From NCBI GenBank assembly GCA_038210825.1, contig JBBQWG010000042.1, positions 145 to 64,144 on the forward strand: DNA of 64,000 nucleotides, written 5' to 3'. The translations under genes were made by a program, and so were the position numbers. The DNA is from Verrucomicrobiales bacterium. GTDB lineage: Bacteria; Verrucomicrobiota; Verrucomicrobiia; Verrucomicrobiales; V1-33. Position 1 is the stretch's first letter; every line of letters starts with the position of its first letter. The notes below the pieces were generated by a model. That model was not told where the DNA came from. It searched no databases and saw only the letters and a program-made list of their open reading frames with translations. Of this stretch, positions 18,425 through 60,356 are shown one piece after another.

Positions 18425-19030
18425 TCAGGCTTTGCGCTTGGCGGGTTTCGCCCCGGCCTTCACGGCGGTCTTCACCGCAGTCTTGGCAGCCGGTTTTGCC
18501 GGGGCAGGCTTGGCGACGGGTTTGGGCGGGGTTTTGACGGCGGCCACCGCTTTTAGCTCCTCCTTGGGAGCGGCAGCCGGTTTCGGCGCCTCTGTGGCGG
18601 GGTTGGGGACCGGGGCCGCGGGGGGTGCGGCGGCGGGTGCGGCGGCGGGTGCGGCGGCGGGGGCTGGAGCAGGGGCTTCAGCAGGGGCTGCAGCGGCGGC
18701 TTTGGCGGCAGGGCGGGCGGCCGCCTTGACGACGGGAGGTCCGGCGGCAATGCCGCGCTTCATCACCGCAAAAAGGCGCTGCACTTCCAGTTTTTTCTGG
18801 GGAGGAATCTGATTCCAGTGGGTGTCCGTCAGGGCACCTTCAATGGCATAAGCGGCGACGAGGGAAACCGGATGACCGGCCAGCAGCATGCGGCGGCAGA
18901 CTTCGATAGCACCGAGTTTGGCCATTTCGCTGCGGCTGCGGACGCCAGCGTCCACCAGCCACAGGGCGGTCTTTTCTCCAAGGTTCTTCAAGGCGGCGAG
19001 TTCGAGGACAACGGGATCGGTAGCGGACAT
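18425..19030 (-). CDS. TfoX C-terminal-domain protein fused to an Ala/Pro/Lys-rich histone-H1-like tail
   Basis: LKNLGEKTALWLVDAGVRSRSEMAKLGAIEVCRRML resembles the TfoX/Sxy C-terminal domain. Residues ~95-201 are low complexity (AAPAAAPAAAP..., KPVAKPAPAKPAAKTAVKTAVKAGAKPAKRKA). Confidence 0.7.
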   Translation of the reverse strand: MSATDPVVLELAALKNLGEKTALWLVDAGVRSRSEMAKLGAIEVCRRMLLAGHPVSLVAAYAIEGALTDTHWNQIPPQKKLEVQRLFAVMKRGIAAGPPVVKAAARPAAKAAAAAPAEAPAPAPAAAPAAAPAAAPPAAPVPNPATEAPKPAAAPKEELKAVAAVKTPPKPVAKPAPAKPAAKTAVKTAVKAGAKPAKRKA

Positions 19031-26393: not shown

Positions 26394-27260
26394 ATGCCTC
26401 CGGTCCCTTCAGAGCCTTCCATCCCCGCCATCGTTCAGGTCCCGGTCCGCCGGGCAAGGCTGGATCCGGCCGATGCCTTTTCCTGGCAGGACACATCCGA
26501 TCAGGTTGCCGCGGAATCCCCCCTGACACTGCGGGTGGAAGGCCGGGCGGTTGCCGTGGTCATGCGCACCCCCGGGCACGACCGCGAACTCGCTGCCGGT
26601 TTTCTGCTCACGGAAGGGGTGATCCGGTCCAGGTCCGATGTTTTTGAAATCTCCGTCTGCCCTTCCGTCAGCGAATGCGGCGACAGCGTGGACGTGCTTC
26701 TGGCCAACCCGGCGGACTTTGATCCTGACCAACTCACCCGCCATGTCTTTACCTCGTCCAGTTGCGGCATCTGCAGCAAGACCAGCCTCACCACCGCCAT
26801 CCCGCCGGACCGGATCCTGACACCTCTGGCGGAGCCCCTGATCACCGGGCCGGAGCTGGCCGGCCTGCCCGATCAATTGCGTCAGGCCCAGCCCGCTTTT
26901 GCCGCGACCGGCGGACTGCATGGCTGCGCGTGGTGGGACGGCACCCGGCATGCCCTCGTCCCCGGTTTGTTATTTGAGGACGTGGGACGTCACAATGCCC
27001 TCGATAAACTGCTGGGCCATGCCCTGCTCACCGGCCAACTCCCCCTGGCCCATGGTGCCCTCATGCTCAGCGGCCGCATCTCCTTCGAACTCGTGCAGAA
27101 GGCCCACGCCGCCCGCATCCCCCTCATCGCCGCCGTCGGAGCCCCCAGCAGCCTCGCCATCGCCTATGCACAAACCGCCGGCATCACCCTCTGCGGATTT
27201 GTCAGGGAAGACCGGTTCAATGTCTATACGCATCCCGGCCGCATCGGGTTGGGCGTTTGA
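26394..27260 (+). CDS. fdhD: formate dehydrogenase accessory sulfurtransferase FdhD
   Basis: FTSSSCGICSKTSL (catalytic Cys loop), GGLHGCAW, EDVGRHNALDKLLG. No formate dehydrogenase subunit gene is in the window. Confidence 0.9.
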   Translation: MPPVPSEPSIPAIVQVPVRRARLDPADAFSWQDTSDQVAAESPLTLRVEGRAVAVVMRTPGHDRELAAGFLLTEGVIRSRSDVFEISVCPSVSECGDSVDVLLANPADFDPDQLTRHVFTSSSCGICSKTSLTTAIPPDRILTPLAEPLITGPELAGLPDQLRQAQPAFAATGGLHGCAWWDGTRHALVPGLLFEDVGRHNALDKLLGHALLTGQLPLAHGALMLSGRISFELVQKAHAARIPLIAAVGAPSSLAIAYAQTAGITLCGFVREDRFNVYTHPGRIGLGV

Positions 27261-27370
27261 GCTGTGCCGACTACCGTGGCGGCGTGAGCATGGAAACGGG
27301 ATGAAGGATCCGAAATACGAGCCCGGAGGTTGACGCCAGCGCATTCGCCGCTTTTTGGTTGTGTTGGAGT

Positions 27371-27808
27371 TTATGCTGGGTCTTCTGGGCTGTGCTCATC
27401 CGGTGACGGACGGATAAAAGTAACCTCTCCACTCGTGGCGTTAAATCTGCCGCACAAGTCACCTCCTATGGCCGATTCTAATTCCACCTGAAACTGACCA
27501 CTATTTTGATAGTGCGAGACCGGAGAAAAGGCCAACTCAAATAGAATGTTGTTTGGAATGGAAATGAAGTCCTCCAAGTCGGCCGAAATGATGCCTGAAA
27601 ATCGAAATCCAATCTCGTGCTTCTTTGTGAGAACGAAAAATCCGCGAGAATCGATCTCAGACGTCATCTCCCATGCCTCAACCTGAAGATCGATGAACTC
27701 TGACGTTCGTGTGAAACTCAAAACGGGGGAATCATGGAAGTCAGGCCAATAACCGTAAGCTCCTACAACGCCCTCAAATCCAATAATATAGCTAGGTGTT
27801 TCATCCAT
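27371..27808 (-). CDS. hypothetical cytoplasmic protein (145 aa), possibly immunity-protein-like
   Basis: Clean ORF in the AT-richer island with no signal peptide or TM helix. The N-terminal motif GYWPDFHDSPVLSF recalls small polymorphic-toxin immunity proteins, but I cannot assign a family with confidence. Confidence 0.55.
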   Translation of the reverse strand: MDETPSYIIGFEGVVGAYGYWPDFHDSPVLSFTRTSEFIDLQVEAWEMTSEIDSRGFFVLTKKHEIGFRFSGIISADLEDFISIPNNILFELAFSPVSHYQNSGQFQVELESAIGGDLCGRFNATSGEVTFIRPSPDEHSPEDPA

Positions 27809-28398
27809 GACGTTGAACTTGTGCGAACTGGATGATCACCGTCAATATCGCTGGTTTCTTATCTCCGCTATCTCCTGCAGAAGGGTCGGAAGAGCACGGC
27901 ATTTTGGGAAAAGCATGGGAATGGCCTGTCAGTTCAGGCGGGTATTTGCACTAAAATGGGCAGGTCTGCAAGATCTCCCTCATCAAGGCGCGAAAAAGCG
28001 TGGTCGGATCGTACCGCGGTGCGTCACGCGGGAACGCGTCACAGTCACGGCTATGTTGCCGCGCCCCTGGACGGCAGTGAAAAGGACGTGGGCTTCGCTG
28101 GGGGCGGCCTGGCAGGGGGCGGGGAAGGCGAAAGTTGAATCCGGAGTGCGGTGGCCGTAACGCAAAGTCACCGGCGTGGTCCACGTTTTTTGGGCGGCCG
28201 TGCCCAAGGAGAGGCGATTTCTGAATCGCCTCACAGCGGCCCGGCACCTTGCCGTTTCTTAAATCCAGTCGTCTCTGACAAACCCCACTCCCTTCCTCGT
28301 CCCAAGGACGGCGCAGGGCGATTCAGGGATCGCCCCTCCTTGTTGCGGATTCGACCGGGCCATCCGGAAATTACCCGGTAATTAGATTGCTGAATGCG

Positions 28399-28696
28399 TT
28401 ATCTTCGATTGAGACCATACGACGGGTGTCTCCGATTATGGCGCAGCACCAGGACACGAATTCCATGAACGTCTCGCGGGAGAGAAAGTGATAAGAAAAT
28501 CCCGGAATATCAGCGCGCCGCAGGACAGAAGAAATGAGATGAAATTTCCCCGGGTTGTGGAGTGCCCTCTCAACAACTTCGAGGAATGCTCTGAAAAAGC
28601 GATCCCCGACCGAAGCTGGACCTCTTCAGTGTGGTAACTCAAAATCCCGCTCATGTCCCGCTGGACGAGTCTGTGAAAGATGACCTTCACTCCCAT
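28399..28696 (-). pseudogene. RelE/ParE-family toxin disrupted by two frameshifts
   Basis: Three successive reading frames give MGVKVIFHRLVQRDMSGILSYHTEE, then GPASVGDRFFRAFLEVVERALHNPGKFHLISSVLRRADIPGFSYHFLSRE, then DVHGIRVLVLRHNRRHPSYGLNRR*. Shifts are near 28622 and 28473. Joined, they make a ~99-aa ParE-like sequence, whereas the annotated 86-aa ORF ends in nonsense. Confidence 0.65.
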
Positions 28697-28908
28697 CAGC
28701 GTCCGAACGATGTTCTGAACTCATCCAGTGACATTCCTGCCGCCGGGTCGCGGTCAAGCTCCGCATCTCTGCGCAAGGCCTCTGCCACGCCACCGTCATC
28801 GTCATGAAGAATGGCGGGTAGCGACTCCAAGAGTTGGGCAGCCAAAAATGCCCGTTGATCTTCAGGTAGCTGCATTGCCTGTTCCTCGAGTTCTGTCAAC
28901 GTGGCCAT
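28696..28908 (-). CDS. addiction-module antitoxin (putative addiction module component family)
   Basis: MATLTELEEQAMQLPEDQRAFLAAQLLESL...RRDAELDRDPAAGMSLDEF. The LP-x3-R-x2-LA-x2-LL-x-SL pattern is typical of antitoxins paired with RelE/ParE. Its stop overlaps the toxin ATG (TGATG). Confidence 0.75.
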   Translation of the reverse strand: MATLTELEEQAMQLPEDQRAFLAAQLLESLPAILHDDDGGVAEALRRDAELDRDPAAGMSLDEFRTSFGR

Positions 28909-28991
28909 GGGCAGACAATACCCCGCACTTGTTGTGCTGCATAGGGGTATTTACTCTTCCACAGGAAGGGGCAGGACTTTTGTGCATTCTC

Positions 28992-29462
28992 TTACCGTGC
29001 CTGCCACTCGCTCCAGTAATCGTCCGAAAGTCTCATCAAATCCTCCAAGGTCCATTCGCGGTGCGACTCATCGAAAACTCTGCATCCTCCGGCCGCCATC
29101 TCAATGATTCCTCCGCAATAGCCCAATTTGGGACGGTTTTGCGTGCAGGCGATCCTTACCATCTGTCCATCCGGCTCTGCGCTCAGCACTCCAAGGCCCA
29201 AGGATGTGATCTCCGTGAAATCTGTGACGTCGGGAATCAAGGGGTGCCCCTCGTCTGTCCAAGGCATAAACCTCACATGAGTGAGACCGTCCATCCGAAT
29301 CGTGAGCTTCCGGTCACCTGGCCTGATCCGCTCCGCCAGATACGCAATCTCAACAACCAACTCAGCGGTGCGCTCTACCTTAGTGCCTCCTGCGATGCAC
29401 CCATCGTGCAAGAAGCCGAAAACCTCTGCGATTTCTTCGGGCCCGGTCATTGTCGGCAACAA
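28992..29462 (-). CDS. hypothetical cytoplasmic protein (156 aa)
   Basis: Clean ORF with no signal or TM helix. The N-terminal FGFLHDGCIAGG loosely parallels the FHDSPV motif of the 27371-27808 product. No family was recognised. Confidence 0.55.
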   Translation of the reverse strand: MLPTMTGPEEIAEVFGFLHDGCIAGGTKVERTAELVVEIAYLAERIRPGDRKLTIRMDGLTHVRFMPWTDEGHPLIPDVTDFTEITSLGLGVLSAEPDGQMVRIACTQNRPKLGYCGGIIEMAAGGCRVFDESHREWTLEDLMRLSDDYWSEWQAR

Positions 29463-29707
29463 ACGCTTCGGACTAGGCGGCGGCGAGCGAAAAGTGCCGA
29501 TGACATGACTTACCCCATAGGAGCCGTTGCCTGCATTCTGTTTTGTTACACCTTTGGAGGTTCACACATCACGTAAGTAGTGCCAAATGCAACTAGAAGA
29601 GGAGCACTACGAACCACCAGAATGCGATGGCAGAGGGGCCAGCATCTCGCGGGGTGCCACCCATGCTGAAGAATCTGTTTTATTCAAACCCGCCTGGATT
29701 TCCCCTC

Positions 29708-29840
29708 CGCTATAGGCCAGCAGCCGGGAGGGCGTCAAGCAGGCGCGTGAAGAAGGCCGTGTCCGGCTTCTGCTCCGGAAACTGGCGGTCACTGGCCGGG
29801 ACGGAAGCCGCCGAGGATTTTGACAAAGTCGAGGTGCTTG
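29708..29840. repeat. direct repeat D: decayed copy of the 3' end plus downstream flank of the 30892-31911 gene
   Basis: ...gtcaagcaggcgcg...ggcttctgctccggaaactggcggtcactggccgggacggaagccgccgaggattttgacaaagtcgaggtgcttg aligns with 30821-30943. It encodes ..LDFVKILGGFRPGQ*, compared with ..LDLRKILGGLRPGQ*. Confidence 0.8.
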
Positions 29841-30022
29841 GGGCCGGGAAGAGTAGATGCCGCTCCTACTGAGCCCAAACCCCATGGCGCGCCCCCCTGC
29901 CATAAAGATCCCGCCACCACGGGGCGGTGCCTTCCGTGCTCTGAAGAACTCAACTCTGGCAACCACGACCGGGCGGCCAGCGGGGAAAGCACAGAGAAGG
30001 TTCGAGCCAAGCTGAGCATGGA

Positions 30023-30307
30023 TCACGGATAGGCAGGGCGGGTGTTGCCAGCAGTATTTGTTGCCCGTGCCCTGCGAATCGTTGCCCGGACGAGAAAGCC
30101 AGCGGCAGCTACCCCGCAGATGGTCCATCCGATCTGGTAGAGCCGATCAGCTACAGCTATCTGCGGCAAAAACGGTTCGACCAATTCAGGCGGATCATCC
30201 CAGCTAATGCCGCCCGCTCGCGATAGGTCGTAGTGGAATGCATATAAGAGCATACCTCCGCCCAACAAGAAGAGGGCTCGAATCCAGTATTTGGAGATCA
30301 TCTGCAT
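30023..30307 (-). CDS. hypothetical small membrane protein (94 aa from ATG 30307)
   Basis: MQMISKYWIRALFLLGGGMLLYAF plus a second helix IGWTICGVAAAGFLV. The ORF track gives a longer 30023-30388 version. Confidence 0.45.
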   Translation of the reverse strand: MQMISKYWIRALFLLGGGMLLYAFHYDLSRAGGISWDDPPELVEPFLPQIAVADRLYQIGWTICGVAAAGFLVRATIRRARATNTAGNTRPAYP

Positions 30308-30406
30308 AACGGAGGACGCTGTAAGTAGGCGGAACGACTCAAGCGCTGGCCCCGCTGGGGCGGCACAGCGCGTCGACGGCGGGGTCAATGTTGAAGTTAG
30401 GGAAAA

Positions 30407-30769
30407 TCATGGAGGCAAAGCAGAACCCCCCAGCGGTTGTCCAGCCGCGCCTTGGTCCTGAGCAGACACCGTGCGCACTTGCTCCACAATAGTCGCGTGC
30501 AGTTCAGAATATAAGGATTGCTCGAAGGTCGCGGGGCTGGTTTCTGGCGAAAGATAATCCTTGTTCACGGCTTCAACAAAAGGAGCAAATACGTGATGGG
30601 ATTTGCTCAAGTGCTCGACTAGGTTCTTGAGTAGCGTCAGCCGTGCCGGACTAACATTCAGACGCTCAGGATCATGACGATAGCGAAATCCCGATTTATC
30701 TGACTGCAGAACCTCCAAATTATCTTTCAAGACGAGCAAGCCCTCAAGATAGTTGTTCCAACGGGACAT
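30407..30769 (-). CDS. hypothetical protein (120 aa)
   Basis: AT-richer ORF MSRWNNYLEGLLVLKDNLEVLQSDKSGFRYRHDPERL... No recognisable motifs. Confidence 0.5.
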   Translation of the reverse strand: MSRWNNYLEGLLVLKDNLEVLQSDKSGFRYRHDPERLNVSPARLTLLKNLVEHLSKSHHVFAPFVEAVNKDYLSPETSPATFEQSLYSELHATIVEQVRTVSAQDQGAAGQPLGGSALPP

Positions 30770-30820
30770 AGATTTAACAGGGGCACGAACGTTCTGATAT
30801 CCAAACTCATTTGGGGATTC

Positions 30821-30943
30821 ACGCTGCGATAGGCTGCCGGGTGGGGGTCAAGCAGGCGCGGGAGGCCGGCTTCCTCACGGGAAACGGGCAGTCACTGGCC
30901 GGGGCGGAGGCCGCCGAGGATTTTGCGGAGGTCGAGGTCCTTG
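30821..30943. repeat. direct repeat C: functional 3' end (last ~16 codons) plus 71-nt downstream flank of the 30892-31911 gene
   Basis: Partner of repeat D (29708-29840). The best-conserved core is gtcactggccgggRcggaRgccgccgaggatttt. Confidence 0.8.
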
Positions 30944-31911
30944 AATTTTTCGCTGAGTTCCGCGGCTTTGGCGGTGATGTCGCCGCTGTATTGGGTGCCC
31001 TTGGATTTGGCGGTTTCGAGGAGTTTGTGGAACTCGGCCTTCAGGGTGGGGATGTCCATCTGGCGGCCGGAGGCGTAGTAGCGGTCCGCCACGGTGCCGA
31101 GGGCATAGGTGGTGGCAAAGGTGAGGGCGGTGCCGGCCACGCCGCCGGTGAGGCCGCCTGCGGTTTCGCCGGATTTGCCGCCGAGGCCGCCCATGACACC
31201 TGACAGGAGTTTGCGCAGCCCGCCTTCCAGGACCTGGCTCACGGCTCCGATGCCGAGGGCGGCCCCGAAGTCCTTCAGGGAATTGCGGTCGAGGGAGATG
31301 CCGTGGCGTTTGCCGATGTCGTAGACCATCTTCATCTGAGTGGGCACGATGGCGAGGGAGCCGGTGGTTTGCGGCAGCAGCTCCAAGGCGGCGGTGAGGA
31401 TGGCGTATTTCAGCAGCACAGGATCGAGGTCCTCCGCCGGGGCGGCGGGGATCTCCGGCATGTCGTCCGGAAAGACGGGGGTCGCGACGGGCACCACCGC
31501 CGCCGGAGGGACCGTGGCGGTGCCCCGGGAGAGCAGCGCTGCGGCCAGACTGGCGAGAAATTGTTGTTCCTCGGGCACGGCGGGGCCGCTGGCCTCGCAG
31601 ACGGACCTCGCCAGTTCATAGGCCAGGCTTTTGGCTTCGGGGGATTCCAGGGCGGCGGCGGCACTGGCCAGGGTGACCTGTTTGGTGAGGACCTTCTGGC
31701 AGGTCGCCCCGAGGTCTACGGCATCCATCTGGAAGCCTTCGGCGACGCGGCGCACGGCGGCATGCTCGGCTTCCTGTTTACTCTGATCCGCAAAGGCCGC
31801 CAGCAGGGCGACGGCGAGGATGGCTTCTTTTTCCTGGGGTGTCATGGCGGCGGGTGGGGTGGGGGCCGAAGGGCCGGTGGAAGAAAACCTGTAAAGGTGT
31901 CCTGCCATCAA
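30892..31911 (-). CDS. TerB-like N-terminal / DUF697-like C-terminal domain protein
   Basis: N-terminus EKEAILAVALLAAFADQSKQEAEHAAVRRV (TerB-like). C-terminus LLKYAILTAALELLPQTTGSLAIVPTQMKMVYDIGKRHGISLDRNSLKDFGAALG (DUF697-like). An alternative start at 31845 (MTPQEKEAIL) is at least as plausible. Confidence 0.65.
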   Translation of the reverse strand: MMAGHLYRFSSTGPSAPTPPAAMTPQEKEAILAVALLAAFADQSKQEAEHAAVRRVAEGFQMDAVDLGATCQKVLTKQVTLASAAAALESPEAKSLAYELARSVCEASGPAVPEEQQFLASLAAALLSRGTATVPPAAVVPVATPVFPDDMPEIPAAPAEDLDPVLLKYAILTAALELLPQTTGSLAIVPTQMKMVYDIGKRHGISLDRNSLKDFGAALGIGAVSQVLEGGLRKLLSGVMGGLGGKSGETAGGLTGGVAGTALTFATTYALGTVADRYYASGRQMDIPTLKAEFHKLLETAKSKGTQYSGDITAKAAELSEKFKDLDLRKILGGLRPGQ

Positions 31912-32124
31912 CCTGCAGAGGCAAATGAAATTTTGAACAGAAGGTCACAAAGCCCCGGAAGTCAGAAACTTACGTTGTTGAAAACTCATCCTCGAACCCG
32001 GCACGGAAGGTGAACCACGAAATCATCGCTACCCCTTCTCATGGTGTCCTTCGTGCCCTTCTGTTCAAATTCATCGCCGTTTTCAGGATGAAATGGCCAA
32101 CGCTGCCAACCCGGCACTTCAGAA

Positions 32125-34281
32125 TCAGTCCGTGCCTCGGAGCAGCGCCAGTTTTTCGCAGGCTTTCAGGTCCAGTTTGCCACTGGCCAGCACGGGGATT
32201 TGTTCGATCCGCACGAGGCGGCGGGGAATCCAGAGAGACGGCACTCCCTGCTCCAGCAGGGTGTATCGGAGCTGGATGATCTCCTGTTTGACGGCTTCGC
32301 TGGCGACGGTGCTGAGGAGGACCAAGGCCTCTCCCTTGTCATCGTCCGGCACCCCCACGACGGCGATGCGGCGTTCGCTTTCCCCTTCCAGATGGAGGGC
32401 GCGGGTGATGTGTTCCTCCACGATTTCATGCGGCACCATTTCGCCTCCGATCTTGGAAAAGCGGCTGAGGCGTCCTTCGATAAAAAGAAATCCATCCTCA
32501 TCGAGCCGTCCGATGTCCCCGGTGCGGAACCAGTCATTCTGGAGGACTTCCTCGGTTTTGCGGGGTTGTTTGAGGTATCCCTTGAAGACGTTAGGGCCCT
32601 TGAACCAGATCATACCGGACTGGTTGACGGATAGTTCGGCATCGGTGGAGGGATCCGTGATCCGGATGGCGAGACCCGGGAGCAACTGACCCACGGAGCC
32701 GACCCGGCGCACCGGCAGCACCGGCCATGGGGAATTGTCAGGTTCGGGCAGATTGAAGTTGGTGGCGGGGGTGGTTTCGGTGAGGCCGTATCCCTCCATG
32801 ACCGGTTTGCCGAATTTCTTGAGAAATTCCTCCTCCAGGTTGAGCGGCAGTTTTTCGGCTCCGGTGACGATGAGTTTGAGACTCGCCAACTGCTCGACCT
32901 TGACCCGTTTCAGATAGCCGCGCAAAAAGGTAGGGGTGCTGAGCATGAGGGCTACCCGGTGCTGGTCCACCAGTTCGGACAGTTTGACCACCTCCAGCGG
33001 GCTGGGATAGGTGACGAGGGGATGCCCCTGCATGATAGGGAACCACAGGGTGACGGTGCCACCCAGGGAATGAAAGAGCGGGAGGGAGCCGAGAATTTTA
33101 TCCTCGGGCGGCAGTCCGAGGCGGAGGGCAAACTGGGTGACGTTGCTGACAATATTCCGGTGGCTGAGGGCCACGCCCTTGGGCTCACCCGAACTGCCGC
33201 TGGTGAAAAGCAGGGCCGCTTCCCGGTCGCCGCCTTCCGCGGAAAGGCCTAGCAATTTCGCAAGGATGGACACCGGCAGCAGTTTGAGGGCAATGAGCCA
33301 CTGGATGATCTTCGGCTTCAACTGCGGCATGATGCGCTCCAGAAACATCAGTTGTTTGGTGGGCGGCCATGGAAAGCTCTGCACTTTCCTGACAAAGGCA
33401 TCGGCGGTGAGGAACCGGTCGATCCCGCTTTGCCGCATGGCGCTTTCGACGGCTTCCTTGCCGGCGGTGAAGTTGAAGTTGACCGGGATTTTTCCGGCGA
33501 GGACGGCAGCCATGTTGGCGACCAGTCCGGCGCGCCCGGGCGGCAGGGCGATCCCAATCCGGGGCTGCTGGGTTTCCTTTTTGATCAACTGGGAAAGCGC
33601 GGCCGCCGCCGCGAAGATTTTGCCATAGGAGGTCACGCTGCCATCCATGCCATCCACGATATGCCCGTGGGTGCCATGTTTTTTGAATCCCGCAAGCAGC
33701 ATGCGGCCCAGGGGAACATTGAGCGCCGGCCGGGTGGCGAAGGCCTCGGCACTCGCAGCAATCAGGGCGGCCTGCACGGCGGCGAACGTGACCCCGGCTG
33801 CGGGAATCACGGGCGCGATAGCATAAACGACCTCCGCGCTGGAGAGACCCGGGTCGATGGATAGCACTTCGCTGCGCGGGTAATCCACGCCGATGGCCTG
33901 AATGGGCATGCCGGACCGGCAGAGATCCTCCAACAGCAGGCGGGGAATAGCGTGATTGGCCACGGGCGGGGCCGTGACCGTGGGTGGCACATAAAGAACC
34001 ACGTTGCCAGCCTGGATGGCCGCATGCAGCGCCTCGTGAGCCCCGGGGGAACCGCGTTCGATCACCGGCAGGTTCAGTGCGGCAATGGCATGGGCCGTAT
34101 CGTTGGCGTAGGCCGCGCCGGGTTCCGTCAGCAAGGTCAGGGCACGTCCGGCCGCCAGTTTGGCCAACCGGGGCAAATCCCCAGGAGCCAGCCGGGCCGG
34201 GAGGAGCAGGACTCCGTCAGAGGATAATAAATCGGTGTGGAGCACCGTAACACCGCGGGAAGTAGTAGTGGCGTGGGCCAT
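32125..34281 (-). CDS. AMP-binding acyl-ACP/acyl-CoA synthetase-like protein (Aas C-terminal-domain homolog) with extra N-terminal domain
   Basis: LLFTSGSSGEPKGVALSHRN (AMP-binding core), MEGYGLTETTP, WFRTGDIG, ASGKLDLK. Start is ATG 34281 (MAHATTTSRGV). The ORF-track N-terminal extension to 34794 runs through intron domains V/VI and is rejected. Confidence 0.85.
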   Translation of the reverse strand: MAHATTTSRGVTVLHTDLLSSDGVLLLPARLAPGDLPRLAKLAAGRALTLLTEPGAAYANDTAHAIAALNLPVIERGSPGAHEALHAAIQAGNVVLYVPPTVTAPPVANHAIPRLLLEDLCRSGMPIQAIGVDYPRSEVLSIDPGLSSAEVVYAIAPVIPAAGVTFAAVQAALIAASAEAFATRPALNVPLGRMLLAGFKKHGTHGHIVDGMDGSVTSYGKIFAAAAALSQLIKKETQQPRIGIALPPGRAGLVANMAAVLAGKIPVNFNFTAGKEAVESAMRQSGIDRFLTADAFVRKVQSFPWPPTKQLMFLERIMPQLKPKIIQWLIALKLLPVSILAKLLGLSAEGGDREAALLFTSGSSGEPKGVALSHRNIVSNVTQFALRLGLPPEDKILGSLPLFHSLGGTVTLWFPIMQGHPLVTYPSPLEVVKLSELVDQHRVALMLSTPTFLRGYLKRVKVEQLASLKLIVTGAEKLPLNLEEEFLKKFGKPVMEGYGLTETTPATNFNLPEPDNSPWPVLPVRRVGSVGQLLPGLAIRITDPSTDAELSVNQSGMIWFKGPNVFKGYLKQPRKTEEVLQNDWFRTGDIGRLDEDGFLFIEGRLSRFSKIGGEMVPHEIVEEHITRALHLEGESERRIAVVGVPDDDKGEALVLLSTVASEAVKQEIIQLRYTLLEQGVPSLWIPRRLVRIEQIPVLASGKLDLKACEKLALLRGTD

Positions 34282-34407
34282 GCCGGATAGAGGGGGGAGG
34301 AAAAAGAAAGGAAAAATCAGCAGAAGCGGGGATCGCAGGGGCTGGAAGACCCGCAGTATCCCCAGTGGCGAAGAAATCTCAATGAAGAACCGCTGAAGGG
34401 AATCTTG

Positions 34408-36470
34408 ATAGGGGGTAGGGATGGCGCATTGGTTTGCGCCACCCCTCCCTCCGAACCGGACGTGCAGATTTCCCGCATCCGGCTCTCCGGTCAACATGTT
34501 GCTCCTTCTTTTCGGAGACTCATCACGAATTCGTCCCGGGCCGAGACCAGACTGTATAACCCGAGTTTCCCGAAGTAGCGGTTGGGCCACCGGAAGTGGT
34601 CTGGGCCGTGGCCCCGACCCTTTCCTTTGTGCCTTTTGCGCAGGATCGACCGCAGGCGCATTCTCACCCACTGGTCCATTTTCACATGTTCTCCCCGCAG
34701 CGCCTGCTGGAAGTAGTTCCCCCAGCCCCGCAGCACCGGATTGATGCCCGCGATGATGGCCGGGAGGCTTTTCCCGCTGGTGCGCCGCGTCCATGGTCTC
34801 AGCGTGCCACGCAGTTTCTGCTGGCTTTTGGGTCTGATGAGCCGCAGCAGCTTGCCTTTCCCGGACCGCTGGAAGCGGTAGCCAAGGAAGTCGAAGTAGC
34901 TGCCGCCCGGGACCATGTCCACGATCCGGGTTTTGTCAGGATGCAGGGTAAGCTGCGCTCCTTCCATCCACCCTTGCACAAGGGCGAGCGCCTGCCGGGC
35001 GGCTTCCCCGCTTTCGGTCAGGATGACAATGTCATCCGCATACCTCACGCTTCGGATGCCGTTGGCAGCGAGGAGGTGGTCGAGGGGATCAAGATAGAGG
35101 TTGGCCAGCAAGGGGCTTATGACACCCCCCTGCGGACTGCCTTTGTCAGGCGTTTCCAGCTCTTTCCCTTCTTCCTGGACGGGCTGTTTGAGGAACCCTT
35201 CGATGAGGTCCAACACTTTGCCGTCCGCGATGCGCTCTTTGACCAGCGCCATCAGCGGAGCGTGCGGGATGTTGTCGAAGTAACCCTTGATGTCCACGTC
35301 CACTACATGTGTCAGGCCGCTGCACAGCAGTCTTTCGACTTCGCGCAGGGCGTCCTTGCAGCCGCGTCCGGGCCGGAACCCATAGCTGCCATCCGCAAAC
35401 TGGCTCTCGAAGATTGGTTCGATCACCATTTTCAGCGCCGCCTGCACCACGCGGTCGGTGACCGTGGGGATGCCCAGCGGACGCCGTTCACGGCTGCCTG
35501 CTTTGGGGATTTGGACCCGTCGGACTGCCTGGGGCCGGTAGCTGTTCTTCGTTAGGCGCTCATTCACGGCGAGCAGCCGGTTTTGGCTGTCTTGGTCGAA
35601 GAACTCCACGCTGATCCGGTCCACGCCGGCAGCCCCGGCATTGGACCGGACGGCTTCCCAGGCCATCCCAAGGGTTTTGACGGCCCTCACTTTGTCGATC
35701 AGGCTGAACCACTTGTTTCCTTCTTTCCCTCTTCCGAGGGCGATGAGCATGGCTTCCGTCCATACCCCGCGTTCGGCCCCGTAGCGTTGCCACAGGTCCT
35801 CTTCAGCTTGCTTATCCCCTGCGGGAACTGACGCTGATGGTTCGTCGCGGTTCATGGCTTTAGTCCATTTGTTTTCCTGCCGCCCTTCGCTCCACCGGCG
35901 TTACCCGGCTTCCGCGCTACTACGGCGGCTCTGACTCCTGACAGGCACCGTCTCCGGTGGTCTTTCCGGTCAGGTCTCCCATCTTCACGCGCACTACCCC
36001 TGCTCAACCTACTGCCACCAACCACCCAAAACGCGCCGCCACTCCCACCATGTTCACGGGGGGACGGTTCCTGCGGATGCGCAGCTTGCCCCAGCCGCAG
36101 GAGGACTTCGCCGTTCACTCGCGGGCTCGTCCACGTTTCCGGCCGAATCGTGTTCACTTGCGTTGCGGTCGATTGAGTTCTCCTCACGATGCTCCCCACC
36201 CCACCTCGCGGTGACGCAGTTTCGTTTGAGTTATTTACGGTTTTAATGGGTTCGTTATGCCGGGTCTCCCACCCGGCGGGGTGGTGCGGCTCGATGGCGC
36301 ACGAGTGCGCGGGGCTTGCCGCCGCATTACAGTTTGGAGTGCGCGCGGCCCTCCGCCGCTTTTCGGGCGAGATAGCTTGCTGATAGTGGGTGAAGGTCCG
36401 CTTCAAGGCCGCCGCGGCTCCGCGCCCTATGCCTCCGGCATCCTCCTAAAGCGGCAGGGGGCTGCCGCAC
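34408..36470 (-). mobile_element. bacterial group II intron (~2.06 kb) with intron-encoded RT/maturase
   Basis: The 5' end is GTGCGGCAG at 36470. Domain V is GAGCCGGATGCGGGAAATCTGCACGTCCGGTTC (34485-34453). Domain VI has a bulged A and ends ...CCCCCTAT at 34408. The RT ORF sits in domain IV. Boundaries are hand-derived. Confidence 0.85.
34491..35855 (-). CDS. group II intron reverse transcriptase/maturase
   Basis: RT motifs RPLGIPTVTDRVVQ, GSPQGGVISPLLANLYL and RYADDIVIL. Maturase X domain INPVLRGWGNYF. No HNH endonuclease domain follows. Confidence 0.95.
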   Translation of the reverse strand: MNRDEPSASVPAGDKQAEEDLWQRYGAERGVWTEAMLIALGRGKEGNKWFSLIDKVRAVKTLGMAWEAVRSNAGAAGVDRISVEFFDQDSQNRLLAVNERLTKNSYRPQAVRRVQIPKAGSRERRPLGIPTVTDRVVQAALKMVIEPIFESQFADGSYGFRPGRGCKDALREVERLLCSGLTHVVDVDIKGYFDNIPHAPLMALVKERIADGKVLDLIEGFLKQPVQEEGKELETPDKGSPQGGVISPLLANLYLDPLDHLLAANGIRSVRYADDIVILTESGEAARQALALVQGWMEGAQLTLHPDKTRIVDMVPGGSYFDFLGYRFQRSGKGKLLRLIRPKSQQKLRGTLRPWTRRTSGKSLPAIIAGINPVLRGWGNYFQQALRGEHVKMDQWVRMRLRSILRKRHKGKGRGHGPDHFRWPNRYFGKLGLYSLVSARDEFVMSLRKEGATC

Positions 36471-39829: not shown

Positions 39830-39934
39830 GCAGCGGGCAGCGGGCAGCGGGCAGCGGTCGGCAGTCGGCAGTCGGCAGTCAGCAGTCAGCAGTCAGCAGT
39901 CAGCAGTCAGCGGTCAGCGGTCAGCAGGCAGCGG
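39830..39934. repeat. blocky heptanucleotide tandem array (15 units; reverse complement of the CCGCTGA family), intergenic
   Basis: 4x GCAGCGG, 3x TCGGCAG, 4x TCAGCAG, 2x TCAGCGG, 1x TCAGCAG, 1x GCAGCGG. It lies 70 nt upstream of the rpe start. Confidence 0.9.
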
Positions 39935-39973
39935 CGGCCAGCGGTTGCCGGGCACCGGCCAGCTGCCAGCGTC

Positions 39974-40346
39974 CAGCGCCAACGGCGCATCCCATGACAG
40001 CCTGGGGTTTCAACCCCAGGAAACCCGGCCCCCCCCGATCCGGAGCGCCATCGGCGCGTTCCATGATGGCGATGTGGATGGCGACGACCAGGCGGGGAAA
40101 TCGGCTTGCTCCGGCCAATCATGAAACGCGCTTTCAGCGCTGGGAAATGGGGAGGGATGATAACCTGGGGTTGAAACCCCAGGCTGTCATGGAATGCGTC
40201 GTTGGCGCTGAAGCGTGTGCATCAAGTGCAACTCGTCTGCCCCCCGAGGCTGTCATGGAATGCGCCGTTGGCGCTGAAGCGTGTGCATCAAGTGCAACTC
40301 GGTCTGCCCCCCGAGGCTGTCATGGAATGCGCCGTTGGCGCTGAAG
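39974..40346. repeat. composite repeat region: 47-bp inverted repeat arms plus 2.5 tandem copies of a 66-67 bp unit
   Basis: Left arm 39974-40020 (cagcgccaacggcgcatcccatgacagCCTGGGGTTTCAACCCCAGG) is the reverse complement of 40164-40210. Tandem units start at 40182, 40248 and 40315 (ggctgtcatggaatgcgYcgttggcgctgaagcgtgtgcatcaagtgcaactcg(g)tctgccccccga). Confidence 0.85.
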
Positions 40347-49136: not shown

Positions 49137-49431
49137 TCTGCCCGATACGGCCACGCCGGCGGCTTTGCACCCGCAGAAAACGCCACTACAAAACTTTGGC
49201 ATGGCATCGCTGTCGTGATCGGGCTTCCAAGGGAACCCATGAGCCTCAACCGCCGTAAATCCAGCGGGGAGTGTCTCCGCACGTCCTGCCGTCACCTGAC
49301 TTTCCCCCAGAAAAACACGTCACTTGACCTATTCTCCTAATTTCCTGTAGGGAATAGGGATTTTTCAGTTGCCCCTTGCTGACTGCGGGCTACCCTGCAT
49401 GGTCCGCTTCCCTTTCCACCCACCGCAAATC

Positions 49432-51228
49432 ATGTCCAAAGCCAGCGTCGAAGAAATCAAGCTTGAGTCCCAGGGCCTCCGTGGCGTCATCGCCGAAAAC
49501 TTCGCTGACCCGGCCCTGACGCATGTGGATGATGCGGAAAATGTGCTTCTGAAGTTCCATGGATCCTACCAACAGGACGACCGCGACCTCCGGCCGATTC
49601 TGACCAAAGAGAAAAAGGAAAAGGCCTGGTCCTTCATGGTGCGTTCCAAAATGCCGGGCGGCCGGATTTCGGCCCGGCAGTGGCTGATCCATCACGAGCT
49701 GTGTGTCCTTTCAGAAGGTTCGCTGCGCCTCACGAACCGCCAGGGAATTCAGTTGCACGGTGTGCTGAAGGGCAACCTGAAGGCAGTCATCGCGGGGATT
49801 TGCCGCAGCGGCCTGACCACGATGGGAGCCTGCGGCGATGTGGTGCGCAATACCATGGCCCCGGCGGCTCCGATCAAGGATGCCGCCCGGCTTGATGCCC
49901 AGCTCCTCTCCGAGGAACTCAGCCAGCGTTTCCTCTGGCGCTCCTCCGCCTATGCCGACATCTGGCTCGACGGGGAAAAGATTGATCTCGACTGGGCGCA
50001 GACCGGCGTGAATCCCGAAGTCCGCGCCCGGACCATCGCCAAGGATGAAAAGGCGGCCGAGGACCCGATCTACGGCAAGCTGTATCTCCCCCGCAAATTC
50101 AAGATCGGCATCGCCATCCAGCCGCAGAATGATGTTGATGTTTTCAGTCAGGATCTTGGCTTTGTGCCACACGTCGAGAACGGGGCCGTCGAAGGTTACA
50201 CCATTACCGTGGGCGGCGGGTTCGGCATGAGCCATGGCCAGCTGAATACACGGCCCTTCCTTGCCCAACCCTTGTTTTATGTTAAGCGCCCCCACGCGGT
50301 GGATGCCGCCGAAGCCATCGTCACCACGCAGCGCGACCACGGCAACCGGACCGAGCGCAAACACGCGCGCATGAAATACACGGTGCAGACCATGGGCATC
50401 GACGGGTTCCGGGCGGAAGTGGTGAGCCGCCTGCCCGGCATCAAAACCTTCCCGGCCAAGCCGATTCCCTTCGACACCGTGGAGGACAACCTCGGCTGGC
50501 ACGAGCAGGGCGACGGCAAACTCTTCTGCGCCGTTTACGTCAGTATGGGCCGCATCACCAACCGTGAGGGAGGCCCGCAGTATCTCGACTGCTTCAATGA
50601 AATCGCAAGGGATCTGGAGCTGCCCTTTATTATTACCCCTAACACCAACGTGATCATTGCTGATGTCGCGCCGGAACAAAAAGGTGCGGTCGAAGCCATC
50701 CTCGCCAAATACCACGTCCCGCACGCCGACGCCATGACCGCCACCCGCCGTGTCGCCCACGCGTGTGTGGCGCTGCCTACCTGCGGCCTCAGCTTGTCTG
50801 AATCCGAACGCGCGCTCCCCGGCGTGCTCGATGAATTTGATGGCATTCTGCGCGAACTCGGACTCGAAAACGACCCCATTCTGGTGCGCATGACAGGCTG
50901 CCCGAACGGCTGCGGCCGCCCCTACAATGCCGACTTTGGTTTTGTGGGGCGTGCTCCCAACAAATACGCCCTCTTCGTTGGCGGCAGCATCGCGGGCGAC
51001 CGCCTGGCCGGTCTCGAAATCAAATCCGTGCTACGCGCCGACATCGCGGCCACCGTCCGCCCCTACTTGGAAGCTTACAAAGCGGAACGACTGGCTGGCG
51101 AGACCTTCAGCGCCTGGTTCGGCCGCACCCGCACCACCGGCGAAGCCCCGACCCCGGAACAGTTCCACATTGAACTCACCGAACGCGCCGCCCGGCTCGC
51201 CGGGGAAAAGGTCACCGCAGCCGGCTGA
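49432..51228 (+). CDS. cysI: assimilatory sulfite reductase hemoprotein (siroheme/4Fe-4S)
   Basis: Collinear with E. coli CysI as I recall it: LRGVIAENF, FHGSYQQDDRDLR, LTNRQGIQLHGV, YLPRKFKIGIA, TTQRDHGNRTERKHARMKYT, CVALPTCGLSLSESER, TGCPNGCGRP. Confidence 0.93.
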   Translation: MSKASVEEIKLESQGLRGVIAENFADPALTHVDDAENVLLKFHGSYQQDDRDLRPILTKEKKEKAWSFMVRSKMPGGRISARQWLIHHELCVLSEGSLRLTNRQGIQLHGVLKGNLKAVIAGICRSGLTTMGACGDVVRNTMAPAAPIKDAARLDAQLLSEELSQRFLWRSSAYADIWLDGEKIDLDWAQTGVNPEVRARTIAKDEKAAEDPIYGKLYLPRKFKIGIAIQPQNDVDVFSQDLGFVPHVENGAVEGYTITVGGGFGMSHGQLNTRPFLAQPLFYVKRPHAVDAAEAIVTTQRDHGNRTERKHARMKYTVQTMGIDGFRAEVVSRLPGIKTFPAKPIPFDTVEDNLGWHEQGDGKLFCAVYVSMGRITNREGGPQYLDCFNEIARDLELPFIITPNTNVIIADVAPEQKGAVEAILAKYHVPHADAMTATRRVAHACVALPTCGLSLSESERALPGVLDEFDGILRELGLENDPILVRMTGCPNGCGRPYNADFGFVGRAPNKYALFVGGSIAGDRLAGLEIKSVLRADIAATVRPYLEAYKAERLAGETFSAWFGRTRTTGEAPTPEQFHIELTERAARLAGEKVTAAG

Positions 51229-51253
51229 ACGAGGGCGGCCTTCCTGCGGGAAG
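51160..51253. repeat. direct repeat A: last 22 codons, stop and 25 nt downstream of cysI
   Basis: cagttccacattgaactcaccgaacgcgccgcccggctcgccggggaaaaggtcaccgcagccggctgaacgagggcggccttcctgcgggaag. Partner at 52158-52254. Confidence 0.85.
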
Positions 51254-52036
51254 TTAATTGAGCCGTTTTACCCGGATGTTGCGGTAGCGCACAAATTGCC
51301 GGGTATGGTCGCCGCCGCCATGGACTTGGAGGGCAATGCGGCCTTTGGCGGGATGCCGGACCTCCTTCTCCTGCCACTCCATGATCTTCACGCCATTGAT
51401 CCATGTCGTGATGTTAGGGGGATTGCCTTCAATGCGGGCACGCAGTTCGTTCCACTGGCCGGCACGCCAGAAATACGGCCAGCTGGCCGGTTTGACCGGC
51501 AATGGAGTGGGCGGCTCTCCGGTCTTTTTATCGGTGATCTCCGTCACTTTGTCCGTGAAGCTGTAATTCCTGACATGGGGTTTGCCGCCCAGACCCTCGC
51601 CATAGATCCCCATCAGATTCCCGCCGCTGTGATAATCAATCATGGCCTGCCAGGCCTTGCCGTCCACGGTGCTGCGCAGGAAAAGCCCGCTGTCCGGACC
51701 GAAGTCGTTGTTCATTTCCATCGCCACCTCAAAGTCCCCGAATTCCTCCTTGGTCATCACCAGACCCCCGTTGCCTGGCACATCCTGACTGCCGGTGATG
51801 GCCCCATTCTCCACGACCCAGCGCCCGCCGCTAGTGTGGTTGCTGGTGCGGGAATGCCCGCTTTTGGCACTGACCTCCCACCCTGCAAGGGACTGGCCGT
51901 CAAACACCCGGACAAAACCTTCTTCCAGCCCCGCCTGCGGTCCTTCCGGCACCGGTTTGGTGTCCTGCTGCGCGATGGCGACCACGGCGGCGAGGAAGGA
52001 AAGAAGCAGAAGAGAAACGGAAACGCGGGTTTTCAT
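51254..52036 (-). CDS. DUF1080 domain-containing (3-keto-disaccharide hydrolase-like) secreted protein
   Basis: Signal peptide MKTRVSVSLLLLSFLAAVVAIA; FVRVFDGQSLAGWE; RWVVENGAITG; GRIALQVHGGG...VRYRNIRVKRL. Confidence 0.9.
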   Translation of the reverse strand: MKTRVSVSLLLLSFLAAVVAIAQQDTKPVPEGPQAGLEEGFVRVFDGQSLAGWEVSAKSGHSRTSNHTSGGRWVVENGAITGSQDVPGNGGLVMTKEEFGDFEVAMEMNNDFGPDSGLFLRSTVDGKAWQAMIDYHSGGNLMGIYGEGLGGKPHVRNYSFTDKVTEITDKKTGEPPTPLPVKPASWPYFWRAGQWNELRARIEGNPPNITTWINGVKIMEWQEKEVRHPAKGRIALQVHGGGDHTRQFVRYRNIRVKRLN

Positions 52037-52157
52037 AAGGTCCCTCTACGCTGGCTGCGGTCCGGTATTTCGAACGGGCCATGACTGAATCCCGGCTCCC
52101 TGCCCTTCCGCCCGGTCCGTAATAGGCTAAATTCCACTCCCTCCTCGGACCGCCTTC

Positions 52158-52254
52158 CAGTTCCCACGTTGAATTCACCGAACGCGCCGCCCGCCTCGCC
52201 GCGGGAAAAGGTCAGCGCAGCCGGCTGAACCATGGCGGCTTTCCTGCTGGAAAG
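52158..52254. repeat. direct repeat B: decayed second copy of the cysI 3' end
   Basis: cagttcccacgttgaattcaccgaacgcgccgcccgcctcgccgcgggaaaaggtcagcgcagccggctgaaccatggcggctttcctgctggaaag. My hand alignment to repeat A gives 8 substitutions and 3 single-base indels, and the indels break the cysI frame. Confidence 0.85.
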
Positions 52255-52280: not shown

Positions 52281-52799
52281 GTGCGATCTTTGACTACTGC
52301 CCGGAAAATTCATGATTTCATGGATTCGCTCGGAAAGGCGGTTCCTGCCCCGGGCCGGATCTATGTCACGGGAGGTGTCTCCGCCGTTTTAATGGGATGG
52401 CGGGAAATGACGGTAGATATTGATATCAAAGCCGACCCCGAACCCGCAGGACTTTTTCAAGCTTTACCGGAACTGAAGGAAAAACTGGACATCAATCTCG
52501 AATTGGCTTGTCCTTCAGACTTCATCCCGCCGCTGCCTGGCTGGGAGAGCCGAAGCCTTTTTGTCCAGCGTTGTGGCAAAATCGATTTTTACCACTACGA
52601 TTTCTACAGTCAGGCCCTGTCCAAATTGGAACGTTTCCACTCCCGCGACCAATTTGATATCGCCCACATGCTGGCGGATGCATTGATTGAAAAACCGCGC
52701 CTGAGTTCACTCTTCACCGCCATTCTGCCTGATTTGATTCGTTTCCCCGCCATTGATATTCCCACCTTCACCCAACGGGTAGCCGACTTCACAGGATGA
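52281..52799 (+). CDS. minimal nucleotidyltransferase-fold protein (DUF6036/MNT-like)
   Basis: IYVTGGVSAVLMGWREMTVDIDIKAD fits the Pol-beta NTase signature hG[GS]-x9-13-DhDh. 172 aa from GTG 52281, with ATG 52320 as an alternative. Locally AT-richer. Confidence 0.6.
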   Translation: MRSLTTARKIHDFMDSLGKAVPAPGRIYVTGGVSAVLMGWREMTVDIDIKADPEPAGLFQALPELKEKLDINLELACPSDFIPPLPGWESRSLFVQRCGKIDFYHYDFYSQALSKLERFHSRDQFDIAHMLADALIEKPRLSSLFTAILPDLIRFPAIDIPTFTQRVADFTG

Positions 52800-53125
52800 A
52801 TATACCCAGCCACGATCTGCTCCACAATCTGCCTGGTGCTGACATCGCCGAAGCTGGGTTGGCCGACCTGGCAGCCCATCGGGAAACCGTGGCTTCCCTG
52901 CTTTTGGAGATCGGATCGCCTCGCCTCACCAAGGCCGGTCTGGCCATTCCCCTTCCCATCAAGTCCGGAACAGGGCCGCCGGATGCCGAACTCCGGCTTT
53001 ATGCTTTGCTGGGCCGGGAGCATGGCTCCGCAGCCTACAGTCAGTATGGGGCGTGGATGCGCCGTCTGGGCAAGCTGTGCCGTAGCTTGGAACAGCGCGC
53101 CCGCCTGCGGCCTGCGCCAAATTGA
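52796..53125 (+). CDS. hypothetical protein (109 aa), start/stop-overlapped with the NTase gene
   Basis: Its ATG overlaps the upstream TGA (ATGA at 52796-52799). Probably helical. No HEPN R-x4-6-H motif or other signature was recognised. Confidence 0.5.
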   Translation: MNIPSHDLLHNLPGADIAEAGLADLAAHRETVASLLLEIGSPRLTKAGLAIPLPIKSGTGPPDAELRLYALLGREHGSAAYSQYGAWMRRLGKLCRSLEQRARLRPAPN

Positions 53126-55876: not shown

Positions 55877-55888
55877 CAGGAGTCCGCC

Positions 55889-59074: not shown

Positions 59075-59105
59075 CCCGCTTCCCCCCCCCACAAACAGCA
59101 ATCCC

Positions 59106-60275: not shown

Positions 60276-60356
60276 GACCACCGTACTCCCCGGGCTCTCC
60301 AGTGAGCCGGGCGGCCCGCTGCTCCCGGCCACGGCCTGCCCCCATTCCCCTCCTCC

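Follow-up and report, generated by a model that had tools for sequence, protein, structure and literature searches.

In this work, we analyzed a 64,000-nucleotide stretch of contig JBBQWG010000042.1 (hereafter, the window) from an uncultured bacterium placed in the Verrucomicrobiales by the names on its cysI homologs. In it, the 3' ends of two conserved genes each occur twice, in direct orientation, around an insert of about 1 kb. At locus 1 the duplicated end belongs to a TerB-N/DUF697-DUF533-like gene, and at locus 2 to cysI, which encodes the sulfite reductase hemoprotein. At each of them, ~95-160 bp comprising the last 16-22 codons, the stop codon and the proximal 3' flank stands on both sides of the insert, and the distal copy, still next to the original downstream DNA, is decaying as a pseudo-3'-end. 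The insertion is thus seen twice in the window, with unrelated targets and unrelated cargo, and at locus 1 the module is polymorphic among relatives. Judged from their sequences, both loci fit best as insertions with long target duplication, that is, as new members of a class that has already been described and is mechanistically unsolved. We infer, with moderate confidence, that host recombination anchored on the conserved gene end most likely made these duplications; no element-encoded enzyme appears to have taken part.

At locus 1, repeats C (30800/30821-30943) and D (29684/29708-29840) are direct copies in the same orientation. As the first-pass annotation of this DNA had described them, C holds the last 16 codons, the stop codon and 71 nt of flank of the gene at 30892-31911(-), and D closes an otherwise meaningless open reading frame (ORF), reading ..KHLDFVKILGGFRPGQ before its stop. 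The claim that the pair duplicates the 3' end of the gene was borne out when the pairwise alignment was run: column identity is ~80% (MAFFT), with a 10-nt and a 4-nt indel, and self-BLAST gives 76.9% over 121 columns (E 2.8e-20). A repeat search recovers two matching segments, 29763-29840 with 30866-30943 (78 nt, 83%) and 29720-29757 with 30833-30870 (38 nt, 82%), whose offsets of 1103 and 1113 imply the 10-nt indel. Fainter likeness in the MAFFT alignment stretches the unit to ~29684-29840 and ~30800-30943, so that the repeat length is given as ~125-160 bp. The homology begins abruptly 51 nt before the stop, and the longest identical run, by eye from the alignment, is ~16 nt after ~20% divergence. 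A profile of both copies revealed no third copy in the 64-kb window (next best match E 0.05). In the direction of the gene, the order is gene, C, ORF120, ORF121, hairpin, a spacer of ~70 nt, D, accessory zone and fdhD, the last being convergent and lying beyond the lower-GC accessory zone. The two ORFs between the repeats are AT-richer, as had been noted (GC 0.51 and 0.56 versus 0.67 in the host gene); insert 1 as a whole has a GC of 0.56 and the remaining accessory zone one of 0.54.

The same architecture had been claimed at cysI, which is correct for the repeats but less so for the cargo. The copies at 51160-51252 and 52158-52252 are 89.5% identical over 95 columns (E 2.5e-27), their homology begins abruptly 69 nt before the stop, the longest identical run is ~19 nt after ~10% divergence (by eye), and the frame of the distal copy is broken by two 1-nt indels. 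No further copies of this repeat were found in the window, and a profile search showed the C/D and cysI pairs to be unrelated sequences with no common target site or core. The cargo, however, is a single DUF1080 family gene on the opposite strand to cysI and of native-like composition (GC 0.60, GC3, at third codon positions, 0.74). Its protein is a singleton in clustering at 90% identity, with no close copy in the collection, whereas the closest cysI homolog seeds a 90% cluster of 24 members. Both cysI copies carry a Thr codon (ELTERAARL) that is absent from 14 of the 14 close cysI homologs checked, which indicates that the duplication arose within the lineage or between very close lineages, and most polarisable differences between the copies are unique to the distal one. 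In L009, L010 and L025, whose cysI is 90-93% identical, other genes stand on both sides and the homology does not extend past the stop codon. These differences (49369-51228 compared with L009, L010 and L025) point either to a highly fluid gene order in the clade or to relocation of cysI itself.

Whether the distal copies could be stumps of tandem gene duplicates, or an artefact of metagenome assembly, depends on what lies next to them. Tandem paralogs do exist in the window, as efflux operons, and the contig is metagenome-derived; nevertheless, we regard this explanation as very improbable. At the nucleotide level, no gene-body trace was found upstream of D (repeat search, profile and self-BLAST) or of the distal cysI copy, in agreement with the earlier claim that D lacks a gene body; D is therefore not the stump of a tandem paralog. 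The homology starts abruptly 51-69 nt before the stop. A two-step history would in addition need the same tidy layout twice. As for an artefact, copies that are 10-20% diverged cannot be collapsed or duplicated k-mer paths, L011 (95% identical, from another sample) reads across both repeats, and the C/insert junction recurs in L003.

The term insertion with long target duplication reportedly goes back to Nobusato et al. 2000, from the Kobayashi group. Described features of the class are repeats of >30 bp and of variable length, no other mobile element and a single copy in the comparison genome; in some cases the repeats overlap the 3' end of a neighbouring gene, and the species concerned are mostly naturally competent (PMC2853133). 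Furuta, Abe and Kobayashi (2010; PMC2853133), who described it, suggested a role for double-strand breakage. The direct repeats found here are longer than 30 bp and unique within the window (~125-160 bp at locus 1, ~95 bp at locus 2), and the inserts, of 0.96 and 0.9 kb, lie well within the <20 kb of the class and hold no mobility genes. The likeness thus extends to a short gene unit between unique direct repeats (46 to ~420 bp published, ~95 and ~125-160 bp here), a related genome with the sequence once, no integrase or transposase, and a possible overlap with a gene 3' end. Several differences exist. The published cargo consists of restriction-modification genes, whose own DNA breakage was suspected by the authors (PMC2853133), whereas the cargo here encodes, at locus 1, an orphan protein of 120 aa and a small hydrophobic one, and at locus 2 a DUF1080 family protein. 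Our repeats are older, 10-20% diverged as opposed to mostly >90% identical, the host is an uncultured verrucomicrobium, and no strict empty site, with both flanks aligning, was found. If the assignment is right, the class would reach beyond restriction-modification cargo and beyond the cultured genomes, proteobacterial and other, from which it was catalogued: an uncultured member of the Verrucomicrobiales would have undergone it twice within 64 kb, independently and with unrelated cargo.

The host gene of locus 1 has 933 homologs, named DUF697, DUF533 or TerB in the source databases, and orthologs are present in L004, L005, L011 and L014. Relatives were checked for alleles without the cassette, as had been suggested. 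In L004 (84% protein identity) the gene end and flank occur once, with neither the module nor a second copy: ~50-75 nt of flank are recognisably conserved and then an unrelated antitoxin-toxin pair follows. This single gene end and flank can be aligned to both C and D, and the DNA beyond is unrelated to the window; any homology between the L004 intergenic region and the DNA beyond D is not significant (114 of 500 shuffles were as good). L005 (89% protein identity) has the same gene end and flank, on a contig that stops 56 nt past the stop and is silent on what follows. The ortholog in L014 (71% identity), sole addition of a second metagenome scan, is followed by an unrelated downstream gene. 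A first metagenome scan with ORF120 as query gave no match, and a scan of genome contigs found only relatives at <=41% identity.

L011, an independent Joint Genome Institute (JGI) assembly from a different sample, has the full structure, with both repeats and the module. It is collinear over 3 kb with 28765-31772 at 94.7% identity, but the identity is uneven, 98.8-99.2% in insert 1 versus 90.8% in the flanking gene. Mismatch density is ~9-10% in the gene body, ~10% below 29377 and only ~1.5% from ~29377 to ~30960, and this low-divergence block spans C, the insert, D and ~300 nt past D. Such a pattern suggests that the block was recently exchanged via double crossover in the flanks, and since the block extends beyond D, the last transfer was not a Campbell integration. 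One module is hence common to, and was possibly exchanged between, lineages that are ~10% apart. In addition, L003 (Logan, 100% identical) independently confirms the C/insert junction. Among ~118 kb of other loci, the same architecture was recognised nowhere apart from L011, which is the same locus; repeat pairs in L018 and L022 were set aside. The L018 pair, on the contig of a distant relative, is a 43-nt direct repeat (414-455 and 1219-1261, 93% identical, 805-bp spacing) that may mark another small duplication-flanked insertion.

As a separate observation on the site itself, 28436-28908 of the window and 2658-3145 of L004 hold non-orthologous antitoxin-toxin pairs of the Unstab_antitox type behind the same conserved gene. 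The presence of different pairs behind the same gene marks the site as a hotspot of accessory genes.

The first-pass annotation had the intact copy joined to the gene and a decayed copy distal to it, and the comparison with L011 agrees: in the coding part, the 2 changes of C are synonymous and the matching 2 of D are non-synonymous. Across the four-way alignment with L004 and L005 the site patterns are star-like, with unique substitutions numbering 0 in C, 10 in D, 12 in L004 and 7 in L005. Within the coding part of the repeat these are 0 in C versus 7 in D, and the non-coding part shows 5 substitutions and 2 deletions in C and 7 substitutions in D. This distribution fits a gene-attached C under purifying selection, constrained only where it is coding, and a distal D that would drift throughout. 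C lacks 10 nt of a small hairpin and 4 further nt, both of which are kept in D and L004; the 10-nt piece is also kept in L005, which stops short of the 4-nt position. In D, L004 and L005 this piece completes the hairpin GAAGCCGG-ACAC-GGCMTTC, and RNAalifold on the repeat predicts one small hairpin only, gone in C. An Rfam scan of 27000-32500 gave nothing relevant, so no structured RNA or regulatory element was recognised in the repeat. A promoter-like TTGACG-N18-TATAGC, read directly from the sequence, is kept in D, and the 4-nt deletion of C falls inside this TTGAC-N-TATNGC motif. The module may be read through from the host gene, and the putative promoter in D may still serve the downstream genes. 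Such a duplication would leave the upstream gene end and the downstream control region intact, and this may be why insertions of this type survive.

For the origin of both duplications, we favour host recombination anchored on the conserved gene end. Incoming DNA from a related lineage would have carried the cargo beside the same gene, with the conserved gene end as the sole homology anchor. Integration could then have proceeded (i) through a Campbell-type single crossover, the fragment having been circularised, or (ii) through homology-facilitated illegitimate recombination on one side only, the other, non-homologous end being joined to the chromosome upstream of the point where homology stops. 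Afterwards, the module would persist and move between lineages by ordinary double crossover in the flanks, and the low-divergence block 29377-30960 relative to L011 fits such an exchange. In Escherichia coli conjugation experiments set up to detect one-sided recombination, single crossovers involving a circular molecule made up most of the products and duplicated 109-950 bp of the homologous segment (PMC3240628). Here, too, heterologous DNA is flanked by a direct duplication of the anchor, within that size range. Both situations are alike in that one stretch of homology is enough and the insert is flanked by a direct duplication. In the experiments, illegitimate joints use a few bases of microhomology (PMC3240628); the CAAG/CAG bases at the junctions of the window are compatible with one-sided joining, not diagnostic of it. 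The Campbell-type single crossover, already put forward in the first-pass annotation, is viable and is our preferred mechanism, although we infer it, with its donor, circle and pathway, for an event fixed in natural lineages, whereas the E. coli events were selected in the laboratory on plasmids.

Several points weigh against this explanation. First, the arrangement expected of a donor, with the cargo beside the same gene, was found in no relative examined. Nor was a strict empty site found: L004 diverges from the window downstream, and cysI has other neighbours in each of L009, L010 and L025. For cysI in particular, neither an empty site nor a donor arrangement was found, four of the four known neighbourhoods being different from one another. 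In addition, RecA-type crossover within ~100-150 bp is inefficient, and the present 80% identity of C and D cannot tell how similar the partners were at the event. The pattern of reciprocal chimeras that a crossover between diverged partners would leave is not resolvable with ~100 sites and a star-like tree. Besides, the divergence mosaic of L011 could be a chimera of metagenome assembly, and the sole competence-related sign in the window is one TfoX_C-domain protein.

Some of the same data would also be expected if the target had been duplicated in situ, through a staggered break of ~100-150 nt or a template switch (microhomology-mediated break-induced replication or fork stalling and template switching, MMBIR/FoSTeS) that captured or copied 1 kb; fill-in would then have doubled the target, the copies being identical at birth. 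Both copies of locus 1 have similar unique non-coding changes, with coding changes only in D; the cysI copies are each other's closest relatives and have the derived codon in common; each insert lies exactly between the copies, with no extra sequence and with 3-4 nt junction microhomologies; the DUF1080 cargo has the native composition expected of a copy of another locus in the same genome; and double-strand breakage was the proposal of the authors of the class (PMC2853133). We still consider this origin unlikely. No source copy of either insert is present in the window, insert 1 is compositionally foreign, and the relatives of ORF120 are found in mobile cassettes of other organisms. Moreover, a C/D divergence of ~20% implies an age near or before the L005/L004 split, and since L004 lacks the module, a secondary loss would be needed.

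A preference for recombination by the host is in keeping with the enzymes encoded nearby. Pfam scans of the ~45 main ORFs of the 64-kb window revealed no integrase, transposase or resolvase, both inserts included; the cargo ORFs had no recombinase match in Pfam, NCBIfam, PADLOC or PHROGs, and the neighbouring genes are ordinary. The earlier statement that the window has no recombinase is accurate for integrases and transposases, but overlooks a group II intron reverse transcriptase/maturase at 34491-35855(-), the only mobile-element enzyme of the window (RVT_1 E 3e-38, GIIM E 7e-17; domain V/VI RNA at 34410-34487, Rfam Intron_gpII). This intron lies 2.6 kb upstream of the locus-1 gene, and nothing ties its reverse transcriptase to the duplications. 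A comparison of the insert ends revealed, at the score threshold applied, neither terminal inverted repeats nor a motif common to both inserts. GTTAA stands at both junctions of proximal repeat and insert, where at cysI it contains the stop codon of the cargo gene, and its sharing is probably coincidental. At the junctions of insert and distal repeat, CAAG and CAG provide 3-4 nt of microhomology, which could equally be the first repeat bases. A DNA transposon or insertion sequence was considered and rejected: there is no transposase, there are no inverted ends, and the duplication measures 95-160 bp where this type expects <15 bp.

The first-pass annotation had offered an integrative island as one reading, and a site-specific island finds no support here: besides the missing integrase and transposase, there are no inverted repeats or shared ends, neither repeat pair is related to the other, and the cargo at cysI is native in appearance. 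A rival reading would have the loci as remnants or satellites of site-specific integrative elements that target the gene 3' end and bring a surrogate one, like e14 at icd, with C and D as attL and attR and the integrase lost or acting in trans. Its appeal is that the architecture is identical to icd-e14-icdC, where the functional end reads into the element and a C-terminal pseudogene stands at the far end (PMC13626634). The duplicated 3' ends described here, with a functional proximal and a pseudo distal copy, repeat this arrangement of a complete proximal end and a diverged C-terminal pseudo-copy at the far side, in direct orientation (PMC13626634). Insert 1 also has a GC below that of the genome, its cargo family is mobile elsewhere (L012) and a variable accessory zone adjoins it. 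However, e14 is a 15-kb element with its own integrase and site-specific excision (PMC13626634), whereas the inserts here are of ~1 kb, without a recombinase, and their duplication runs well into the non-coding flank. No integrase-encoding gene stands beside the presumed att sites, and no integrase gene or pseudogene was found in either 0.9-1 kb insert or among the scanned ORFs of the window. A surrogate coding end has no need of similarity beyond the stop, yet here it continues for 24 to ~100 nt; identical runs reach only ~16-19 nt (by eye), and the two loci have no common core. The cysI insert holds a single gene of native appearance together with its upstream region, and losing all mobility genes twice while leaving tidy single modules would be unparsimonious. 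Taken together, these observations make an e14-like origin improbable.

The cargo of locus 1 belongs to a rare family. Close homologs of ORF120 are four only (P0241-P0244, 99-62% identity), and the family amounts to nine 50%-cluster representatives among 1.84 billion proteins. Neither ORF120 nor ORF121 had a match in Pfam, NCBIfam, PADLOC or PHROGs, no relatives were found in viral contigs, and the AlphaFold2 model of ORF120 is a 4-helix bundle of low confidence (predicted local distance difference test, pLDDT, 61). The L013 homolog is 81% identical as a protein; in the DNA, strong homology to the window (85% nucleotide identity) is limited to the ORF120 gene and ~15 nt upstream, and a fainter likeness runs, by eye, ~25 nt upstream and ~80 nt downstream of it. 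In L012 (ENA ERZ22857436 NODE_36619, 1-2578), a 63% identical homolog is one cassette of a genuine integron array, with small same-strand ORFs between attC sites. These are five complete attC and one partial one (GCCTAAC...GTTAGGC, ~105 nt), whose consensus hairpin has 30 pairs, 9 of them compensatory.

Because the ORF120 family is a cassette in L012, an integron origin was tested for the window as well, namely that the module consists of integron cassettes placed at a secondary site behind the gene by an integron integrase, now a degenerate cluster of attC sites lacking integrase (CALIN). A covariance model was built from the five L012 attC sites and run on the window and on 9 loci. It gave 16.9 bits (E 0.04) just 3' of ORF120 and then 13.4 bits, with partial model coverage, but with the filters off equally good scores occur inside ordinary coding regions. 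A sequence-only attC profile (nhmmer) had no match in the window, neither the C and D flanks nor either cassette 3' flank folded significantly better than shuffled sequence, and the C, D and ORF120 3' flanks (z -0.3 to -1.3) showed no R''/R' pairing. The window has no intI gene, no attI and no cluster of at least 2 attC. There are points of resemblance: the genes are small, promoterless and on the same strand, with a toxin-antitoxin module close by, GTTAAAT stands 3 nt ahead of the start of ORF120, and the strong homology with L013 is confined to about one gene, with weaker likeness beyond. To our knowledge, however, integron recombination does not create target duplications of ~100 bp, and nothing at cysI is integron-like. 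The integron reading of the window is therefore largely refuted, and we see hardly any chance for it. ORF120 is cargo drawn from a mobile small-gene pool, yet not an integron cassette in the window.

It is tempting to speculate about a dedicated process instead, in which an enzyme acting in trans throughout the genome of this lineage would insert ~1-kb modules behind conserved genes through cuts staggered by 90-160 bp. Such an enzyme could conceivably be tied to the integron-cassette pool of ORF120 or to the group II intron reverse transcriptase. A so far unrecognised process of this kind would, if true, explain both two events in 64 kb and the 25-year-old puzzle of the class, but we regard it as highly doubtful. 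If such insertions turn out to be common across the genome, conserved gene ends would offer a transferable homology by which small accessory modules could be taken up and spread with no mobile-element enzyme, and pseudo-3'-ends would help to find these insertions. Being pseudogene fragments, the distal copies should be kept out of gene annotations.

Table 1. Positions of the duplicated gene ends, inserts and neighbouring features in the window
Feature	Position	Strand	Remarks
Conserved host gene, TerB-N / DUF697-DUF533-like	30892..31911	-	338-339 aa; weak TerB Pfam match
Repeat C, proximal copy	30800..30943	-	52 nt coding end including stop, ~70-90 nt 3' flank
Insert 1	29841..30799	-	~0.96 kb, GC 0.56; ORF120, ORF121 and terminator-like hairpin
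ORF120, orphan small protein	30407..30769	-	GC 0.51
ORF121, hydrophobic small protein	30023..30307	-	GC 0.56; 94 aa from ATG, 121 aa from upstream TTG
Terminator-like GC hairpin, then T-rich tail	29911..29927	-	end of insert 1
Repeat D, distal pseudo-3'-end	29684..29840	-	diverged copy: last 16 codons, stop, flank
Rest of lower-GC accessory zone, downstream of D	27371..29462	-
ORF156, accessory zone	28992-29462	-
Unstab_antitox antitoxin, accessory zone	28696-28908	-
86-aa ORF adjoining the antitoxin	28436-28696	-
ORF145, accessory zone	27371-27808	-
Full-length group II intron	34405-36470	-	reverse transcriptase ORF and domain V/VI match
cysI, sulfite reductase hemoprotein	49432..51228	+	Pfam NIR_SIR, NIR_SIR_ferr; homologs up to 93% identity
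Locus 2 proximal repeat	51160..51252	+	last 22 codons of cysI, stop, 24 nt flank
Insert 2	51253..52157	-	~0.9 kb, GC 0.60; one gene and ~125 nt of its upstream region
DUF1080 / 3-keto-disaccharide hydrolase family gene, signal peptide	51254-52036	-	PF06439, E 5e-29
Locus 2 distal repeat, frameshifted cysI pseudo-3'-end	52158..52252	+
Accessory pair past the distal repeat	52281..53125	+	DUF6036 nucleotidyltransferase-like protein and 109-aa partner

Further observations concern other parts of the window. The group II intron stands directly after a GC hairpin and TTT, downstream of a HupE gene, and in this it resembles a class C, terminator-proximal insertion. It inflates the ORF at 32125-34794 to 889 aa; the start of the AMP-binding gene is probably the ATG at 34281. 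The protein with a TfoX C-terminal domain is encoded at 18425-19030(-), with an adjoining 12-nt GC-rich tandem repeat at 18605-18714; in other bacteria, this domain is part of competence regulators. A match to Acido-Lenti-1 RNA (39975-40020, -) lies within 39831-40346, flanked on one side by a heptamer array, CAGCGGT x15 (39831-39934), and on the other by a 66-nt tandem repeat of 2.6 copies with 97% identity (40177-40346). Finally, 54713-63527 contains two tandem paralogous efflux operons of the resistance-nodulation-division (RND) type, each with membrane-fusion and pump genes, at ~67-73% nucleotide identity and 4.46-kb spacing; this pair is an ordinary tandem duplication, different in kind from the short gene-end repeats.

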